Shown: positions 4,625-30,600, counted from the stretch's first letter. The stretch is 36,928 nt of DNA from a virus (IMGVR_UViG_2778261565_000018:1-36928); one strand, 5' to 3'. Notes: generated by a model from the sequence alone, not told the origin. A program made the numbers and translations.

Positions 4625-4972
4625 TCATACCTGGTCTCTCTCATCTGCTTCTGCTTTCGCCACCATCATTTCCAGCTTTTGTGAAAGGGATGCGGCTAAC
4701 GTATGAAATTCTTCGTCTGTTTCTACTGGTATTGGCACAAACCTGACTCCAATTTGAGCGAGGCTATGTGCCATCTCGATACACGTTCTTAACTCAACAG
4801 GAGATGCTTTGTGCATACAGCCCCCCCGTTTATTATTTATCTCCTCAGCCAGCCGCTGTGCTTTCAGGGGATTTCTGATAACAGAAAGGCCGGGAAATAC
4901 CCAGCCTCGCTTTGTAACGGAGTAGACGAAAGTGATCGCGCCTACCCGGATATTATCGTGAGGATGCGTCAT
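4625..4972 (-). CDS. Hypothetical early protein, about 115 aa
   Basis: ORF track; start chosen at ATGA overlap with exo stop. Confidence 0.5.
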
Positions 4973-5649
4973 CGCCATTGCTCCCCAAATACAAAACCAA
5001 TTTCAGCCAGTGCCTCGTCCATTTTTTCGATGAACTCCGGCACCATCTCGTCAAAACTCGCCATGTACTTTTCATTCCGCTCAATCACGACATAATGCAG
5101 GCCTTCACGCTTCATGCGCGGGTCATAGTTGGCAAAGTACCAGGCATCTTTTCGCGTCACCCACATGCTGTACTGCACCTGGGCCATGTAAGCCGATTTT
5201 ATTGCCTCGAAACCACCGAGCCGGAATTTCATGAAATCCCGGGAGGTAAACGGGCATTTCAGTTCAAGGCCGTTGCCGTCACTGCATAAACCATCGGGAG
5301 AGCAGGCGGTGCGCATACTTTCGTCGCGATAGATGATCGGGGATTCAGTAATATTCACGCCGGAAGTGAATTCAAACAGGGTTCTGGCGTCGTTCTCGTA
5401 CTGTTTTCCCCAGGCCAGCGCCTTAGCATTAACTTCCGGAGCCACACCGGTGCAAACCTCAGCCAGCAGGGTGTGGAAGTAGGACATTTTCATGTCAGGC
5501 CACTTCTTTCCTGAGCGGGGCTTTGCTATCACGTTGTGAACTTCTGAAGCGGTGATGACGCCGAGCCGTAATTTGTGCCATGCATCATCCCCCTGTTCGA
5601 CAGCTCTCACGTCGATCCCGGTACGCTGCAGGATAATGTCCGGTATCAT
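4969..5649 (-). CDS. exo: Lambda exonuclease (Red alpha), 226 aa
   Basis: Protein recognised as lambda Exo. Confidence 0.97.
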
Positions 5650-6431
5650 GCTGCCACCTTCTGCTCAGTGGCTTTCTGTTTCAGGAATCCAAGAGCTTTC
5701 ACTGCTTCGGCCTGTGTCAGTTCTGACGAGGCGCGAATGTCGCGGCGAAATATCTGGGAACAGAGCGGCAATAAGTCGTCATCCCATGTTTTATCCAGGG
5801 CAATCAGCAGAGTGTTAATCTCCTGCATGGTTTCATCGTTAACCGGAGTGATGTCGCGTTCCGGCTGACGTTCTGCAGTGTATGCGGTATTTTCGACAAT
5901 GCGCTCGGCTTCATCCTTGTCATAGATACCAGCAAATCCGAAGGCGAGACGGGCACACTGAATCATGGCTTTATGCCGTAACATCCGTTTGGGATGCGAC
6001 TGCCACGGCCCCGTGATTTCTCTGCCTTCGCGGGTTTTGAATGGTTCGCGGCGGCATTCATCCATCCACTCGGTAACGCAGATCGGATGATTGCGGTCTT
6101 TGCGGTAAATCCGGCATGTGCAGGATTCATTGTCCTGCTCAAAGTCCATGCCATCAAACTGCTGGTTTTCATTGATGATACGGGACCAGCCATCAACGCC
6201 CACCACCGGAACGATGCCGTTCTGCTTGTCAGGGAAGGCGTAAATTTCTTTCGTCCACGGATTAAGGCCGTACTGGTTGGCGACGATCAGCAATGCGATG
6301 AACTGCGCATCGCTGGCATCACCTTTAAATGCCGTCTGGCGAAGAGTGGTGATCAGTTCCTGTGGGTCGACAGAATCCATGCCGACACGTTCAGCCAGCT
6401 TCCCAGCCAGCGTTGCGAGTGCTGTACTCAT
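5646..6431 (-). CDS. bet: Bet single-strand annealing protein (Red beta), 261 aa
   Basis: Protein recognised as lambda Bet; ATGA overlap with exo. Confidence 0.97.
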
Positions 6432-6436
6432 CCGTT

Positions 6437-6853
6437 TTATACCTCTGAATCAATATCAACCTGATGGTGAGCAATGGTTTCAACCATGAACCGGATGTGT
6501 TCTGCCATGCGCTCCTGAAACTCAACATCGTCATCAAATGCACGGGTAATGGCTTTTTTGCTGGCCCCGCAGCGTTGTAAATGATCGATGCAGAGCGATT
6601 CAAACAAATGCTGGGGCAGGCCTTTTTCCATGTCGTCTGCCAGTTCTGCCTCTTTCTCTTCACGGGCGAGCTGCTGGTAGTGACGCGCCCAGCTCTGAGC
6701 CTCAAGACGATCCTGAATGTAATAAGCGTTCATGGCTGAACTCCTGAAATAGCTGTGAAAATATCGCCCGCGAAATGCCGGGCTGATTAGGAAAACAGGA
6801 AAGGGGGTTAGTGAATGCTTTTGCTTGATCTCAGTTTCAGTATTAATATCCAT
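6437..6853 (-). CDS. gam: Gam, RecBCD inhibitor, 138 aa
   Basis: [32 protein letters not shown] matches lambda Gam. Confidence 0.97.
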
Positions 6854-6951
6854 TTTTTATAAGCGTCGACGGCCTCACGAAACATCTTTTCATCGCCAAT
6901 AAAAGTGGCGATAGTGAATTTAGTCTGGATAGCCATAAGTGTTTGATCCAT
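6808..6951 (-). CDS. kil: Kil (FtsZ inhibitor), 47 aa
   Basis: [47 protein letters not shown] inside the longer track ORF; overlaps gam and cIII as in lambda. Confidence 0.85.
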
Positions 6952-7084
6952 TTTTTGGGACTCCTGGCTGATTAAGTATGTCGATAAGGCGTTTCCATCC
7001 GTCACGTAATTTACGGGTGATTCGTTCAAGTAAAGATTCGGAAGGGCAGCCAGCAACAGGCCACCCTGCAATGGCATATTGCAT
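6920..7084 (-). CDS. cIII: CIII (FtsH inhibitor), 54 aa
   Basis: Hand-translated [54 protein letters not shown]; overlaps kil 5' end by 32 nt. Confidence 0.85.
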   Translation of the reverse strand: MQYAIAGWPVAGCPSESLLERITRKLRDGWKRLIDILNQPGVPKNGSNTYGYPD

Positions 7085-7156
7085 GGTGTGCTCCTTATTT
7101 ATACATAACGAAAAACGCCTCGAGTGAAGCGTTATTGGTATGCGGTAACGCAGCGC

Positions 7157-7525
7157 TCAGGCGGCTTTGATAGTCATATCATCTGAATCAAATATTCCTG
7201 ATGTATCGATATCGGTAATTCTTATTCCTTCGCTACCATCCATTGGAGGCCATCCTTCCTGACCATTTCCATCATTCCAGTCGAACTCACACACAACACC
7301 ATATGCATTTAAGTCGCTTGAAATTGCTATAAGCAGAACATGTTGCGCCAGCATGATTAATACAGCATTTAATACAGAGCCGTGTTTATTGAGTCGGTAT
7401 TCAGAGTCTGACCAGAAATTATTAATCTGGTGAAGTTTTTCCTCTGTCATTACGTCATGGTCGATTTCAATTTCTATTGATGCTTTCCAGTCGTAATCAA
7501 TGATGTATTTTTTGATGTTTGACAT
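7157..7525 (-). CDS. ea10: Ea10 protein, 122 aa
   Basis: 122-aa ORF at the lambda ea10 position; N terminus MSNIKKYIIDYDWKASIEIE. Confidence 0.8.
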   Translation of the reverse strand: MSNIKKYIIDYDWKASIEIEIDHDVMTEEKLHQINNFWSDSEYRLNKHGSVLNAVLIMLAQHVLLIAISSDLNAYGVVCEFDWNDGNGQEGWPPMDGSEGIRITDIDTSGIFDSDDMTIKAA

Positions 7526-7544
7526 CTATTCATATCCTCATAGA

Positions 7545-7571
7545 TAAAAAATCGCCCTCACATCGGAGGGC
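7545..7571 (-). terminator. Putative intrinsic terminator (tL-type) upstream of ea10
   Basis: GCCCTC-6 nt loop-GAGGGC followed on minus strand by a T-run. Confidence 0.45.
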
Positions 7572-7689
7572 AAAGAAGATTTCCAATAATCAGAACAAGT
7601 CGGCTCCTGTTTAGTTACGAGCGACATTGCTCCGTGTATTCACTCGTTGGAATGAATACACAGTGCAGTGTTTATTCTGTTGTTTATGC

Positions 7690-7715
7690 CAAAAATAAAG
7701 GCCGACTATGCGGCC
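7690..7715 (-). terminator. Putative intrinsic terminator after the membrane-protein gene
   Basis: GGCCG-loop-CGGCC followed on minus strand by TTTATTTTT. Confidence 0.45.
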
Positions 7716-7720
7716 TGAAA

Positions 7721-8170
7721 TTACTTAACCAATGATGCTGCATATTCGATAAGGTAAAGCTTTGGGGCCAGCCAAATTTTTAACCAAGTCATATTGGTTA
7801 CTACACCAATAATAAAAATCCCCCACAGAGTCAAAACTCCAACCAATGGCATGATAAGAAGATTAATATCACCTTTGCTATCCCAAACCATTGTCGGCCT
7901 GTATTTGGGATTTCCTTTCTCCCATGAATATCCTTCATCACCGATTTTACCTGTCTCAACTCTTTGGCACTGCTTCTTCATAAACCAGAAAACCAGTGGG
8001 ATTGTTAGAATGGCCATTAATGTTTTAATCAGACTGTCAACCATATTCCATAGCAGCAACTGATGAACAACATCAGGAATCTGTGCCTGGCTAAATGAAA
8101 CAGCCGCGTCTATTCCATTACTGGCTTTTTGCAGTAGTTCTACGAGAATCTTGTTTGCTTGTTCTTCCAT
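7721..8170 (-). CDS. Hypothetical membrane protein at the ral/sieB position (possible superinfection exclusion)
   Basis: 149-aa ORF with hydrophobic helices (LMAILTIPLVFWFM, LLIMPLVGVLTLWGIFIIGVV); visibly AT-rich. Confidence 0.55.
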   Translation of the reverse strand: MEEQANKILVELLQKASNGIDAAVSFSQAQIPDVVHQLLLWNMVDSLIKTLMAILTIPLVFWFMKKQCQRVETGKIGDEGYSWEKGNPKYRPTMVWDSKGDINLLIMPLVGVLTLWGIFIIGVVTNMTWLKIWLAPKLYLIEYAASLVK

Positions 8171-8309
8171 ATATCACCTTGATTGTAATAAGCATGAAAT
8201 TATTTACGGACAAAAATAAAGGCCACCATCAGGCAGCCTTGTAGTTCTGTTTACCAAGTTCTCTGGCAATCATTGTCGTCGTTCGTATTGTCCACACCAT
8301 TGATTCTTA

Positions 8310-8396
8310 TCAATAGTCGTAGTCATACGGATAGTCCTGGTATTGTTCCATCACATCCTGAGGATGCTCTTCGAACTCTTCAAATTCTTCTTCCAT
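8310..8396 (-). CDS. Possible acidic micropeptide (28 aa, MEEEFEEFEEHPQD...YDYDY)
   Basis: Hand-found ORF with GAGGTGAG Shine-Dalgarno upstream of ATG; may be spurious. Confidence 0.25.
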   Translation of the reverse strand: MEEEFEEFEEHPQDVMEQYQDYPYDYDY

Positions 8397-8454
8397 ATCT
8401 CACCTCAAATAAGTGGTTTGCTGCCTAATTTCATTTTCTGGCGACCAACACAAG

Positions 8455-8727
8455 TCATCTTGCTGTCAGTTGTTTGGATTTCCGGTAGCCTGCCGCGTAA
8501 AGAGCTACGTTCGGAAGACAAGTTGAACCTTCATATTTTCTGGTCAACGTTGTCAGTGTTATTACTTCTGCTCTCATTGCTGGTTTGCGCTTGCATTGCA
8601 AGACCACTCGTGAAGGGGTTGGCCTGTGTAGCTTGTCGGAGCTGATCGCCTCCTGACTTTGCAGATTTGCGCGACGAGCTCTACGGCGAGAAGCTGCGGT
8701 GCCTTTAAATTCTGTTTTTCTGGACAT
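8455..8727 (-). CDS. N: N-like transcription antiterminator (P22 gene 24 type), 90 aa
   Basis: Arginine-rich motif GTAASRRRARRANL; C terminus VALYAAGYRKSKQLTAR resembles P22-type N; GGAGG RBS; sits downstream of nutL. Confidence 0.75.
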   Translation of the reverse strand: MSRKTEFKGTAASRRRARRANLQSQEAISSDKLHRPTPSRVVLQCKRKPAMRAEVITLTTLTRKYEGSTCLPNVALYAAGYRKSKQLTAR

Positions 8728-8752
8728 GGATTCCTCCCGAATAAACTTTGGC

Positions 8753-8800
8753 GATGCAATCTCGAAGCTCCTCCTGAGACGGTTGCTTCGGCATTGCATC
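8753..8800 (-). promoter_or_regulatory. Extended N-leader hairpin (candidate RNase III or translational control element)
   Basis: GATGCAAT..CGAAGC-16 nt loop-GCTTCG..ATTGCATC, about 14 bp of pairing between nutL and the N RBS. Confidence 0.35.
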
Positions 8801-8825
8801 CCACAGCTTATGTGGTTGGGTGATC

Positions 8826-8871
8826 TGGCTTTTCAGCCACGTAGTCGAGAGTCGACGTTGTTTAAAGAGCC
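8826..8871 (-). promoter_or_regulatory. nutL: nutL (boxA GGCTCTTTAA; boxB UGGCU-GAAA-AGCCA)
   Basis: Minus-strand read; near-identical architecture to nutR at 11505-11550. Confidence 0.6.
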
Positions 8872-8916
8872 TGCCAGTCTGTTCCATTTGGCTTCCAGCG
8901 TCCTGCTGACGGTTAA

Positions 8917-9163: not shown

Positions 9164-9916
9164 TTATGCTGCAAGTCTCTTAATCCAAGTCTCTCTTTTG
9201 GAGAATGGTAGAACTTGGCTTGATTCATGGAAGAGTAAGGAGAGTTGTTGCATTTGATCACCAATTGCTTCGCTGTCTATAACAACAAATCTGTTGTTAT
9301 ACTCCTCACTTGAAGCTTTAAGATCAATTAGTTTCCCAAGCAATGAGTAAGCACTATTCCAGCTTCCTCCGTGTTTCACGCTTGATGTAAAAACGTATTT
9401 AGGTATGTCGGTTTTTATTGTTACAGGGACGGTAATTTGATGTCCACTCAAGCCATATACGTTTTCACGAAGAGAAAGTGCGTCTCTAAGCTCTGTGTGA
9501 TATAGATAATCAATAACCATACTTTCAAACTTTTCAGCTTGAACTGGCTGATACCAGTCTAACGACAAAGTTGATGCGAGTATACCAGCTCTAATTATGT
9601 TCGATGTAATCGCACCGACATCCTTTTCTGTTGCCCAAGCAATGATTTCTCCTCGAGCATTGAGTTCTGCGCCTTCTTTAAGCAGTAATTGTCGTATCTC
9701 ATCAAGTCGTTTTTTGGTAAGCGAGATCCCTCTTGCCTCCATATTCATTAAGGCATCGCATCTGTCACTAACTAAATACCTACCATTGACTTCACGGATA
9801 AAGGCACCGACATGCTCTCCATCATCACAGTAAGTGAATGGACTGATAATTCTCAAGGTCTTGCCTATTGGATGGCATTCGAAACCTAGTTGTGAGATCA
9901 CTGTTGAGCACATCAT
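9164..9916 (-). CDS. Hypothetical protein B (250 aa), distal gene of rex-slot cassette
   Basis: ORF track; ATGATG start overlaps upstream ORF stop (ATGA); no family recognised; AT-rich. Confidence 0.6.
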   Translation of the reverse strand: MMCSTVISQLGFECHPIGKTLRIISPFTYCDDGEHVGAFIREVNGRYLVSDRCDALMNMEARGISLTKKRLDEIRQLLLKEGAELNARGEIIAWATEKDVGAITSNIIRAGILASTLSLDWYQPVQAEKFESMVIDYLYHTELRDALSLRENVYGLSGHQITVPVTIKTDIPKYVFTSSVKHGGSWNSAYSLLGKLIDLKASSEEYNNRFVVIDSEAIGDQMQQLSLLFHESSQVLPFSKRETWIKRLAA

Positions 9917-10509: not shown

Positions 10510-11169
10510 TCACCCAAACGTCTCTTCAGGCCATTGGCTGGCGATAACTTTCCCCACAACGGAACAACTCTCATTGCATGGGATCATTGGGTATTGTGGG
10601 TTTAGTGGCTGTAGAAACACCTGACCGCTATCCCTGATCAGTTTCTTGAAGGTAAATTCATCACCACCAAGTCTGGCTATGCAGAAATCGCCGGGCTCAA
10701 CAGCTTGCTCAGGGTCAACCAGAATTAACATCCCGTCAGGAAAGCTGGGTTTGGAACCTGTTGGTGCGGTCATTGAGTTACCTTCAACCTCAAGCCAGAA
10801 TGCAGAGTCACTGGCTTTTTTGGTTGTGCTTACCAATCTCTCCGCATCGCCTTTGGTAAAGGTTCTGAGTTCTGGAGAGAACATCCCAGCCTGAACATGA
10901 GAAAAAACAGGGTACTCATATTGTTTTTTAACTGGGGCCGATGAGTATTCGCCAACAGGTGAAAATGTCCCGTCGTGGTTGAATGATATGTTATCAATAC
11001 CAAGGTATTTAAACACCACACCAATATCACTAAGAGATGGATGACGAGATCCGCGCAACCAGTGTCCAATCCCACCCTGCGTCATACCTAGCTCTTCGGC
11101 TAACTTCTCTTGAGTTATGCCGAGCTCTTTCATTCTGGATCTAGCCAGTTCATACCATTTCATTTTCAT
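10510..11169 (-). CDS. cI: CI-type repressor: XRE-family HTH N-domain plus lambda-cI-identical C-terminal S24 domain
   Basis: C-terminal about 135 aa ([21 protein letters not shown]...QWPEETFG) match lambda cI; N-terminal HTH differs; start taken at MKMKWYEL, alternatives upstream. Confidence 0.9.
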
Positions 11170-11278
11170 GTCCTTATTATTACGCTTTGTACTGGAACCA
11201 TCCATGCACAATGTGTATTTTTACTTGTATTCGTAAAGTACATATTGTATTTTTATTCGTGTTTACTATGGAGGGCAT
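11170..11278 (+). promoter_or_regulatory. OR operator region with divergent pR/pRM
   Basis: Between divergent cI and cro; TTGTAT-17 bp-TATTTT candidate pR; motifs GTAAAGTACATAT and ACGCTTTGTA shared with OL. Confidence 0.5.
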
Positions 11279-27697: not shown

Positions 27698-30600
27698 ATG
27701 AGTGTGGCGACATTACGTGAACTGATTATTAAAATCTCGGCAAATTCCCGGTCATTCCAGTCAGAGATCTCCCGGGCTTCGCGTATGGGGCAGGATTACT
27801 ACCGTACCATGCAGAACGGAGGCCGACAGTCCGCTGCTGCATCCCGTGAAATGCGGCGTGCACTGGCAGAAGTGACGGATCAGATAAATACAGCTAAATC
27901 TTCGGCACTGAACATGGCGGGGGCATTTGCCGGGGCTTTTGCTACCGGTCATCTTATTTCTCTCGTCGATGAGTGGAATTCAGTAAATGCCCGTCTGAAG
28001 CAGGCCTCACAGTCCAGTGATGATTTTCAGTCATCACAGCGTGAATTAATGGCGATCAGCCAGAGAACGGGGACGGCGTTTTCTGATAACGCCAGCCTTT
28101 TTGCCCGTTCTGCAGCTTCCATGCGGGAGTATGGTTACAGTTCTGAGGAGGTACTGAAAGTCACCGAGGCGATCTCCACGGGCCTGAAATTATCCGGTGC
28201 CAGTACAGCAGAAGCCAGTTCGGTGATCACGCAGTTCAGTCAGGCACTGGCGCAGGGAGTGCTGCGCGGTGAAGAGTTTAACTCGGTGAATGAGAACGGC
28301 GATCGTGTTATTCGTGCGCTGGCTGCGGGAATGGGGGTTGCCCGTAAGGATCTGAAGGCCATGGCGGATAACGGAAAACTGACCGCCGATAAGGTTGTTC
28401 CTGCACTGATTAGTCAGCTTGGGGCGTTGCGTGATGAATATGCAGCAATGCCTGATACGGTTTCATCCTCTGCAACCAAAGTTGAAAACGCCTTTATGGC
28501 CTGGGTTGGTGGTGCGAACGAGGCAAGCGGAGTGACGAAGACGCTCTCCGGTGTGCTGAATGGTATTGCAGGCAATATTGACACCGTGGCAACCGCTGCT
28601 GGTGCTCTGGTTGCCGTCGGGGTAGCCCGATATTTTGGCAATATGGCGTCGTCTGCTGGATCTGCAACTGCCGGATTAATTACTGCAGCCAGAAACGAAG
28701 TGGCTCTTGCTGAAGTGCAACTTCGGGGGACACAGATAGCAACCGCCAGGGCGCGTGCGGCGGTTTATCGTGCGCAACAGGCGGTTGTTGCTGCTCGCGG
28801 TACCGAAAGGCAGGCCGCAGCAGAAGCGAAGCTGACAGCTGCCCAGGTGTCACTTACCCGTAATATTGCGGCCAGAACAGCGGCACAGACAACGCTGAAT
28901 AATGTTACGTCAGTGGGGAGTCGTTTATTAAGTGGCGCGCTGGGGCTGGTTGGTGGTGTGCCGGGACTCGTCATGCTGGGGGCTGCGGCCTGGTACACGA
29001 TGTATCAGAATCAGGAGCAGGCCAGAGAATCTGCACGACAGTATGCCGCAACAATCGACGAAATTCGCCAGAAAACGTCGGCAATGTCGCTTCCTGAAGC
29101 GTCAGATAATGAGGAAAAGACGCGACAGGCACTGAAGGAGCAAAACAGGTTAATTGACGAGCAGAAAAGTAAGATTAAATCCTTACAGGAAAAAATTGCT
29201 GGCTATCAGTATGTGCTGGCAAACCCGGGCTGGACAACCGATAACGGTTTTATGATTAACCACATGACGTCGGTAAAAACTGTCACAGAAGGGCTTGCAG
29301 AAGCAACAAATCAACTGGCAGTTGAACAGTCTCGCCTCACTCAAATGCAGGGCAAAGCGCAATCCATTCAGGATGTGCTTGCCGGGCTGGAGGAGCGACG
29401 GGTGGCGTTGATCCGTCAACAGGCAGCGGAACAAAACAAAGCGTATCAGTCCCTGTTGATCATGAATGGGCAGCATACCGAGTTTAATCGCCTTCTCGGG
29501 CTCGGTAATGAATTACTTCAGCAGCGACAGGGGCTGGTGAATGTACCGTTACGGCTACCACAGGCAACCCTGGATGATAAACAGCAGACCGCACTGAATA
29601 ACAGCGAGCGCGAACTGGCTCTGTCCCGCCTGAAGGGGGAAGCTCGTGAGCGTGCCCGCCTGGGTTATGCTGCGGATGATCTCGGCTTTGTGGGAGAGGC
29701 GTATCAGACAGCAAGACTGAATTATATAAATAACTCACTGGATGCATGGCGAAATAACCAGGCAAATAAACCCAAAGCGCATAAAAAGACCGAAGCGGAA
29801 AAAATAGAAGATACTTATAAGCAACTGATTAAACAGCAAAAAGAGCAAATAGCACTGGCAGGGCAGAATACTGAACTGGCTAAGATGAAATATCAGGTCA
29901 GCCAGGGCGAATTATCAACCCTGTCAGAAGCGCAGAAAAAAACGCTTTTGCAGAATGCAGCACTCATCGACCAGAAAAAGATTCGTGAGCAGCTTGCTGC
30001 GTATGAGAGCAGTCTGGCGGACAGTAATGCCAGTGTCAGAGCATCAAATGAGGCTCAGTTACTGGGATATGGTGAAGGCTCACGGATGCGTGAACGACTT
30101 CAGGAAATGTGGAGCATCCGGCAGGAGTTTGAGCAGAAAAATAACGAGCTACTGAGACAGTATCAGGCCGGAGAAATTGAAGAAGCCCTGTGGAAACAGG
30201 AAAAATCTCTGAATGAAAAATATCTGGAAGAGCGTCTCAGCGATCAGCAGGATTATTATGCAAAGGCTGATGCTTTACGCAGTAACTGGAATGCCGGACT
30301 CCAGGAGGGACTGACGAACTGGGCAGACAGTGCCACCGATTATGCTTCGCAGGCGGCAGATGCTGTCGTTTCCACTATGGACGGGCTGGTATCAAATATT
30401 TCCGATGCACTGGCCGGAAATGTTGTGGACTGGAGAAACTGGGGGAGTTCAATTCTCCAGGAAGTTTCAAAAATTCTGATGAACGCTGCCATCGTTAACG
30501 GGCTGAAGTCACTTTCCAAAAGCATGTCCGGTGCCGGAGGATGGCTTGGTACAGTCGGCGACTGGCTTTCCGGTGCAGTGGCAAACGCAAAAGGTGGTGT

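Follow-up and report, generated by a model that had tools for sequence, protein, structure and literature searches.

Small membrane proteins encoded by phages but not required for their growth include SieA from P22, the SieB proteins from lambda and P22, and Imm from T4. Determinants of exclusion and immunity tend to be non-toxic membrane proteins, which are expressed both in the prophage and early in infection and whose core is polymorphic within one host species. The sieB gene of lambda and P22 occupies the interval from N (gene 24 in P22) to orf28/ral but is encoded on the other strand, and the P22 record annotates a promoter for it. A further point of reference is the moron, which Juhala et al. 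in 2000 reportedly described as an extra, autonomous unit placed between two genes of a related phage.

The gene described here encodes a 149-residue membrane protein whose likeness to SieA, SieB and Imm is of kind only, SieA and SieB being without sequence similarity to it. It is homologous to Sf6 gp34 and the other members of PHROG 3054, among them proteins from CUS-3, HK633 and N7, the 'TM helix-containing protein' from HF4s, GALLYPH_30 from the Gally prophage, and gp220 from phi92; this match names the kinship of the protein, not its function. The gene is found in a 36,928-nucleotide stretch of viral DNA (IMGVR_UViG_2778261565_000018:1-36928), the whole of which is referred to as the window. 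The window is a lambdoid prophage, with its pL (early-left) operon on the minus strand. In the chromosome of E. coli strain CEA106S, an 801-bp query covering 7640-8440 was matched at 100% identity, and PGAP labels the identical locus there as 'hypothetical protein' and 'antirestriction Ral family protein, frameshifted'.

The ral-ea10 region of the window

The features of the early-left operon and its surroundings are as follows.

4969-5649, minus strand: exo
5646-6431, minus strand: bet
6437-6853, minus strand: gam
Between gam and cIII in the pL gene order, minus strand, listed without coordinates: kil
6920-7084, minus strand: cIII
7157-7525, minus strand: ea10 (DUF2528), the downstream neighbour of the 149-residue gene
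7573-7552, minus strand: hairpin preceding ea10, common to lambda
7699-7716, minus strand: terminator-like hairpin after the 149-residue gene, from folding and lambda alignment
7721-8170, minus strand: coding sequence of the 149-residue two-pass membrane protein (PHROG 3054, Sf6 gp34 family), from ORF, profile, hydropathy and AF2 (structure model)
8171-8218, minus strand: 48-nt leader running from the upstream hairpin to the ATG, with a Shine-Dalgarno sequence and a weak promoter-like element
8219-8240, minus strand: upstream terminator-like hairpin (ral terminator), from folding; matches the lambda ral-ea10 terminator
8229-8326, minus strand: ral pseudogene, from lambda and Sf6 alignment, translations and PGAP
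8310-8396, minus strand: orf28, encoding 28 acidic residues (PHROG 16060; lambda map)
8455-8727, minus strand: N antiterminator (Pfam N_peptide, E = 2e-32; PGAP coding sequence; lambda map)
Upstream of N and before the repressor, listed without coordinates: two genes in the rexAB position
10510-11211, beyond the genes in the rexAB position: cI-type repressor

As features of the sequence, both predicted ORFs were confirmed at their stated positions; their interpretation was borne out in part, without support in its details. The original prediction assigned the membrane protein to the ral/sieB position of lambda. The gene does belong to the accessory, variable portion of the pL operon, but its actual site is the ral-ea10 intergenic terminator and not that of sieB: it shares the strand of the pL operon and comes after ral, and since the gap between N and orf28 measures 58 bp, sieB is absent from the window. 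Neither has the gene taken the place of ral; it was added next to ral, of which a remnant persists at 8229-8326. The AT-richness ascribed to the region is real, with a GC content of 0.38-0.41 over 7200-8400 as compared to 0.50-0.54 in exo/bet, yet because ea10 is equally AT-rich, low GC is not special to the 149-residue gene. A search of Rfam revealed no known RNA inside 7690-8396.

The ral pseudogene, which is overlapped by orf28 and was overlooked by the original prediction, differs from the ral genes of lambda and Sf6 by an internal deletion of 103 bp between the microhomologies GGACAAT and GGGCAAT, with a resulting frameshift. The ORF that is left has 18 codons (MTTTIDKNQWCGQYERRQ*), whereas ral is intact in lambda at 66 residues, the approximate length of an intact Ral. 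The same 18-codon truncation is present in 23 of 142 orf28-containing loci, and in more than one sequence variant, which shows it to be an established allele and not an assembly error.

The acidic ORF of 28 residues located upstream (8310-8396, minus strand) has the peptide sequence MEEEFEEFEEHPQDVMEQYQDYPYDYDY and, as had been predicted, a good Shine-Dalgarno sequence, GAGGTGA at 8406-8400. It had been put forward as a possible micropeptide. The ORF does bear a coding-type pattern, but it is not new: its product is 100% identical in amino acids to that of the annotated lambda orf28 (lambdap47, NC_001416 34271-34357) and matches PHROG 16060 with E = 7e-19. An unannotated copy is also present in P22. 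The last 17 nt of orf28 overlap the start of ral, and both this overlap and the Shine-Dalgarno sequence are the same in lambda. Through a degenerate DNA pattern scan of viral contigs, 142 copies of orf28 were gathered, and across these the peptide is almost invariant. Outside of the ral overlap (nt 30-69) there are 14 variable sites, 10 of which fall on third codon positions (binomial p = 0.004). As this substitution pattern is of the coding type, orf28 is probably translated.

Translation need not imply a working peptide, and orf28 might be a mere leader ORF that feeds ribosomes to the overlapping ral start, in which case it would be a relic in the window, where ral is dead. Such an arrangement would agree with the 17-nt overlap and with the finding that ral, full or truncated, comes next in nearly every one of the 142 loci, its ATG lying 14 nt before the orf28 stop; moreover, CRISPRi in lambda has shown orf28 to be non-essential and dispensable for plaque formation (PMC10695390). 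A pure coupling device, however, requires neither a near-invariant peptide nor an excess of third-position changes, and the ORF remains intact where ral is truncated. A leader role without peptide function is thus rated as somewhat short of an even chance.

The 149-residue gene is bounded by two hairpins. Upstream, at 8240-8219, AAGGCTGCCTGATGGTGGCCTT is followed by TATTTTT (-17 kcal/mol, z = -3.3). Downstream, the gene has the minus-strand terminator of its own that had been predicted for it, a hairpin and U-tract at 7716-7699 consisting of AGGCCGCATAGTCGGCCT and then TTATTTTT, with a minimum free energy of -12.3 kcal/mol in a 46-nt fold (z = -2.3); the same hairpin recurs in 55 of 74 related loci. 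A 13-bp direct repeat, GCCTTTATTTTTG, is common to the two structures, one copy being contained in the upstream hairpin (8223-8211) and the second (7702-7690) comprising the 3' half of the downstream hairpin together with its U-tract, at a distance of about 521 bp. In the alignment, lambda has a single hybrid hairpin after ral, AAAGCTGCCTGATAGTG joined to GCCTTTATTTTTGGC, while the window, Sf6 and Gally each possess the same two hairpins, and in all three GCCTTTATTTTTG flanks the 149-residue-type gene on both sides. With two hairpins and a repeat around the gene, the locus is laid out like an accessory unit that was added. The alignments show an accessory cassette of about 521 bp, composed of leader, gene and terminator, that was inserted into lambda's ral-ea10 terminator.

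This is one of several sites at which the gene resides. Among 74 close relatives in viral contigs, an upstream terminator like that of the window was found in 30, the gene directly follows N in 17, and in 11 it replaces orf28-ral beside lambda-type sieB-side sequence, with other contexts making up the remainder. The starts of the 149-residue gene and of orf28 have a junction in common, AGGTGAKATATGGAAGAA, which corresponds to the ribosome-binding site and looks like the recombination joint where the gene displaces orf28-ral. In PhiR46_1, the orthologue is located between Rz and Nu1, the slot of bor in lambda.

The membrane protein and its family

The predicted ORF with hydrophobic helices was recovered at 7721-8170 on the minus strand, starting with an ATG at 8170-8168 that is preceded by the Shine-Dalgarno sequence AAGGTGA (8180-8174). 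Two hydrophobic stretches, at approximately residues 43-64 and 103-125, have 19-residue Kyte-Doolittle means of 1.9 and 2.45, and they divide the protein into a conserved N-terminal segment (1-41), TM1 (~43-64), a loop (65-102), TM2 (~103-125) and a conserved C-terminal helix (128-149). An AF2 model computed from 149 diverse sequences attained a pLDDT of 86, whereas input of 21 close sequences gave an unusable pLDDT of 64. The model contains helices at residues 2-68, 106-125 and 128-148, the first of which is the N-terminal segment continuing into TM1, and the last of which represents the C-terminal helices.

Family alignments show that the N-terminal 40 residues (…GIDAAVxFSQAQIPDVVxQLLxW) and the C-terminal motif WLKIWxAPKLYLxEYAASLxK are constant, with Phe26, Pro32, Gln37 to Leu39, Trp41, Ala135-Pro136-Lys137, Glu142 and Tyr143 being nearly invariant. 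Conversely, the loop between TM1 and TM2 ranges in length from about 7 to 70 residues and is also very variable in sequence. By alignment, hydropathy and the AF2 model, the window's protein carries the N-terminal segment (…FSQAQIPDVVxQLLxW), the two TM helices and the C-terminal motif, and the constant segments and two-TM layout of the Sf6 gp34 family are the same as its own. The N-terminal helical segment and the C-terminal amphipathic helix of PHROG 3054 are on the same side of the membrane, which is assumed to be the inner one. As for which side this is, the loop has a lysine and arginine density of 0.16, the N-terminal segment one of 0.04 and the C-terminal tail one of 0.12, and counts by member favor an N-in/C-in orientation for short-loop members and the opposite for long-loop members.

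The 149-residue protein matches PHROG 3054, a family of unknown function, with E = 4.2e-64, its residues 1-149 aligning with positions 1-137 of the 137-position profile, and the same match was obtained for all 42 diverse family members aligned. Its close homologues number 516, come from Enterobacteriaceae, and are without exception labeled hypothetical, those from Gally and HF4s being 97-98% identical to it. When 1.84 billion cluster representatives (50% identity) were searched with a profile, 2,477 of them scored E ≤ 1e-3 and 1,112 scored E ≤ 1e-10. With this number of relatives, the ORF is more than a product of chance. The core type found in the window occurs in 132 of 5,426 complete E. coli genomes.

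Using tblastn, the family was located in 181 phage records. Its lambdoid and P22-like carriers include Sf6 (gene 34), CUS-3, HK633, N7, HF4s, Gally and some Stx2a phages, and further carriers are N4-like Schitoviridae, phi92-like myoviruses (phi92 gp220), and Vibrio and Pseudomonas phages; a jumbo phage of Ralstonia carries a member of PHROG 3054 as well. Early or middle gene clusters are the setting of the gene in N4-like and phi92-like phages. These phages are presumably virulent, and because they carry the family, its function is not tied to lysogeny. Members in these two groups are sometimes found beside other small envelope proteins. No conserved partner gene was found in other phages, where the upstream and downstream neighbors vary, several of them being envelope proteins.

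Database searches yielded little beyond the family itself. Scans of the 149-residue and 28-residue proteins against Pfam, NCBIfam and PADLOC gave no match, and a Pfam scan of the 42 diverse family members returned only scattered single weak matches that reflect TM composition. A profile search of PDB sequences produced nothing other than TM-hairpin noise (best E = 0.012). Foldseek searches with the AF2 model retrieved no match from the PDB, and from BFVD only members of the family. No paper was found in the literature on the PHROG 3054 family. The anatomy and family assignment of the gene are nevertheless solid.

The homology to SieB and other exclusion proteins that the original prediction had offered for checking did not materialize: in hhalign comparisons, the family scored a probability of 0.4% against P22 SieB, 0.2% against lambda SieB and 0.2% against P22 SieA, with no match in Pfam, PADLOC or NCBIfam. 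The scores against SieB, together with the missing Pfam match, rule out membership of the protein in the SieB family. The broader proposal, that it is a SieB family member or a functional replacement at the SieB/Ral position, would account for a membrane protein being encoded in the accessory region from N to cIII when the lambdoid phage has no sieB. Yet in its usual place, between N and orf28, sieB is oriented the other way and in P22 has an annotated promoter of its own, and in 11 of the 74 loci the gene comes after lambda's sieB-adjacent sequence, from which its co-occurrence with sieB seems probable. Taken with the hhalign and Pfam results, these observations make the proposal highly improbable. 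A role as a holin was likewise rejected, as the gene belongs to the early-left operon, has no Pfam holin match, and is transcribed in a lysogen without evident harm.

Comparison of the window's gene with Sf6 g34 and the HK633 allele reveals an uneven distribution of similarity. Nucleotide identity amounts to 97-100% over codons 1-38 and 93-100% over the last ~15 codons, whereas the TM-loop-TM core between them is only 20-50% identical, and thus effectively unrelated. Differential constraint alone is insufficient to explain such mosaic alleles, because the synonymous sites at the ends are identical as well. The TM-loop-TM cores have been exchanged among E. coli phage alleles via recombination.

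Transcription of the gene

A standard scan of the region upstream of the 149-residue gene detected no sigma-70 promoter. The best candidate under relaxed settings has AATAAT at 8204-8199 as its -10 element, a poor -35 element, and 8 of 12 matches. The 48-nt leader of the Gally gene differs from that of the window by one base and is enclosed by the same two hairpins, and RNA-seq data are available for this prophage in E. coli LF82, in which GALLYPH_30 is the orthologue, 97-98% identical to the 149-residue protein (PMC9928086, tables S1 and S4).

Expression values in that study are given as log2(fpkm+5) (PMC9928086). In stationary-phase LB cultures, GALLYPH_30 is at background (4.5 / 3.87; PMC9928086). 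After 6 h in DMEM, it reaches 7.12 / 6.99 as compared to 3.88 / 4.14 for N, with raw counts of 539 and 466 for GALLYPH_30 and of 26 and 32 for N, while the gene downstream of it is at 4.83 / 4.87, recT at 4.24 / 4.48 and cro at 4.04 / 4.2 (PMC9928086). In macrophages, GALLYPH_30 is at ~7.0 at both 1 h and 6 h, and N is at 6.71 / 6.62 at 1 h and 4.46 / 5.08 at 6 h (PMC9928086). Altogether, GALLYPH_30 is up about 8-fold in DMEM and macrophages versus LB (log2FC 3.04, q = 4e-14; PMC9928086). The authors of that study scored Gally as being without a moron, from LB only (PMC9928086).

After 6 h in DMEM, the signal of the orthologue thus exceeds that of N by ~10-fold and drops ~5-fold after the GALLYPH_30 terminator, with the lytic genes remaining quiet. 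In our analysis, this peak appears best explained by a promoter belonging to the gene itself, combined with termination at its own terminator. It could also represent a stable RNA fragment bounded by the hairpins, in place of the product of a dedicated promoter, or it could arise from H-NS-type derepression of AT-rich DNA. Under the first explanation, the data suggest that a lysogen may transcribe the gene as a separate unit, which a prophage exclusion gene requires.

The induction also bears on whether the protein could be a lysogenic-conversion or host-fitness factor, that is, a prophage membrane protein which aids the bacterium in cell-culture medium or in the macrophage vacuole and is unrelated to other phages. 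The ~8-fold increase in DMEM and macrophages over LB would agree with such a factor, as would the position of one orthologue in the Rz-Nu1 slot, where bor lies in lambda. The family is, however, widespread in phages taken as virulent and in marine Vibrio phages, where such a role makes little sense, and mosaic polymorphic cores within one species are unexpected for a factor of the housekeeping type. A contribution to host fitness is therefore regarded as unlikely.

In the 17 of 74 loci in which the gene comes right after N, there is no room for a promoter, and where it directly follows N or is part of a phage operon its expression must be that of any other early gene. In the mechanism proposed for the window, the gene would be read early in lytic growth from N-antiterminated pL transcripts, whereas in the lysogen a weak, condition-dependent promoter of its own would be responsible for its transcription, with the transcripts ending at its own terminator.

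The gene has features in common with the lambdoid morons. Like them, it is an extra gene, missing from lambda at this site, that possesses its own terminator, and its near-identical counterpart in Gally appears to be transcribed independently of the lytic cascade. Unlike them, it yielded no consensus promoter, the Gally orthologue is silent in LB, and N4-like and phi92-like phages have the gene as a regular member of an operon, while in other phages it stands directly after N.

Candidate functions of PHROG 3054

Together, these observations raise the possibility that the 149-residue protein protects the cell expressing it from secondary phage infection, as an exclusion or immunity protein with a function like that of T4 Imm or P22 SieA. 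This role is favored because a protein of this type is tolerated in a lysogen and transcribed there without the lytic cascade, and because the family is represented among the early genes of phages taken as virulent and varies from allele to allele in a single host species. The constant ends would then be the working or docking part of the protein, and the swappable core would set its specificity. No exclusion phenotype was found in the literature for any PHROG 3054 member, and the Pfam scan of the protein matched none of the superinfection-immunity families, returning no family at all. Exclusion is accordingly proposed here tentatively, as a possibility well short of an even chance. The missing consensus sigma-70 site, the silence of the orthologue in LB, and the 17 of 74 loci with the gene directly after N are observations that count against both exclusion and a separate promoter.

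Conserved ends, along with loops of only ~7 residues in some alleles, suit binding to a conserved partner of host or phage origin no less than they suit the recognition of varied incoming phages. This raises the question as to whether the protein is instead an early lytic accessory, acting in host takeover or counter-defence. It would be made from pL with N antitermination and inserted into the membrane, where it would neutralize either a membrane component of the host or a defence system that acts at the membrane, and it would be grouped functionally with ral, gam, kil and cIII, among which the gene is in fact placed. The lack of a consensus promoter is in keeping with such a role, as are the direct succession to N in 17 of the 74 loci and, in 11, the replacement of the orf28-ral anti-restriction unit by way of junction AGGTGAKATATGGAAGAA. 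The N4-like and phi92-like phages, taken as virulent, hold the gene in early clusters and have no lysogens to protect, and the conserved ends suggest a conserved target. Yet in a lysogen, a protein of this nature should either be silent or prove toxic, while in Gally the orthologue exceeds N by ~10-fold and its signal falls ~5-fold past its own terminator with the lytic genes uninduced; in addition, there is no PADLOC match and no recognizable anti-defence homology. Early takeover or counter-defence is thus doubtful, though nearly as likely as exclusion, and a role in host fitness is less likely than either.

The window itself adds nothing new, being one more copy of a protein that is identical or near-identical to hundreds of database entries labeled hypothetical, and orf28 has been in the lambda annotation for decades. 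PHROG 3054, however, is a large and clean 'known unknown', for which neither a Pfam entry nor a solved structure nor any paper was found. The family could conceivably, though improbably on present judgment, form a new and widespread class of phage immunity or exclusion proteins in temperate and virulent phages alike. A constant helical module, facing the cytoplasm or the periplasm, would be combined with a swappable TM-loop-TM core that chooses the competitors to be blocked or the membrane target in the host, and the window would possess a single allele of this polymorphic 'membrane immunity' locus. The pairing of constant ends and exchangeable cores, the movement from slot to slot, and the condition-dependent transcription in the lysogen together make the family a cheap and well-defined target for functional study.

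The start junction shared by orf28 and the membrane gene

In the window, orf28, the 28-aa acidic ORF, and the gene for the 149-aa membrane protein have a ribosome-binding-site/start junction, AGGTGAKATATGGAAGAA, in common, and the remnant of ral lies between its two copies.

8168-8185 (minus strand): shared junction AGGTGAKATATGGAAGAA at the membrane gene
8394-8411 (minus strand): the same junction at orf28; also present in many related loci
8229-8326 (minus strand): ral pseudogene, an 18-codon ORF left after a 103-bp internal deletion

In phages that carry the membrane gene in place of orf28-ral, the sequence 5' of the gene is exactly that of orf28. The junction has the appearance of a recombination linker.

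The ral deletion in the window lies between GGACAAT and GGGCAAT, and a truncated ral of the same form is found, in more than one sequence variant, in 23 of the 142 viral loci with orf28. In P22 (NC_002371), a homologue of orf28 lies directly upstream of ral at approximately 29527-29613 on the minus strand, where the reference record carries no annotation for it.

Orthologues of the membrane protein in other phages

PhiR46_1 encodes an orthologue of the membrane protein with 76% identity (2501-2950 of the locus), in a slot quite unlike that of the window, with the lysis genes R and Rz on one side and the terminase gene Nu1 on the other; approximately 25 nt 5' of the gene have moved along with it. 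At 2501-2866 of its locus, HK633 encodes a complete member of the family, 121 aa long and with a loop of about 7 residues. The annotation of HK633 shows no more here than gp42, a fragment of 58 aa, and the overlapping gp43, and so looks like a probable mis-annotation.

Neighbouring genes in the window and in E. coli CEA106S

Between N and the cI-type repressor, at the position held by rexAB in lambda, the window carries a pair of genes:

9164-9916 (minus strand): DUF1828 protein, 250 aa
9913-10470 (minus strand): DUF6978-like protein, 185 aa

The pair matches two PADLOC models of candidate defence systems, PDC-M24B (E = 6e-10) and PDC-M24A (E = 5e-4), and may serve in defence of the prophage's host, transcribed together with the repressor. 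A putative 60-aa "hypothetical protein" called by PGAP (8705-8887, minus strand) overlaps the 5' end of N. The start of cIII (7039-7097, minus strand) matches the lambda cIII thermoregulator RNA element in Rfam (RF01804, 88.5 bits, E = 1e-21).

The copy of the prophage region in the E. coli CEA106S chromosome contains IS3-family insertions (984-2594 and 7497-7801 of the locus). One interrupts gam, which is intact in the window; another is located at the truncated cII fragment.

Expression of Gally accessory genes

In Gally, the prophage of E. coli LF82, several further accessory genes (GALLYPH_20-22, _52 and _13-_17) are also up in DMEM and in macrophages, while the core lytic genes remain low (PMC9928086, S1 Table). 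The conclusion of that study that there are no morons in Gally is valid for LB only.
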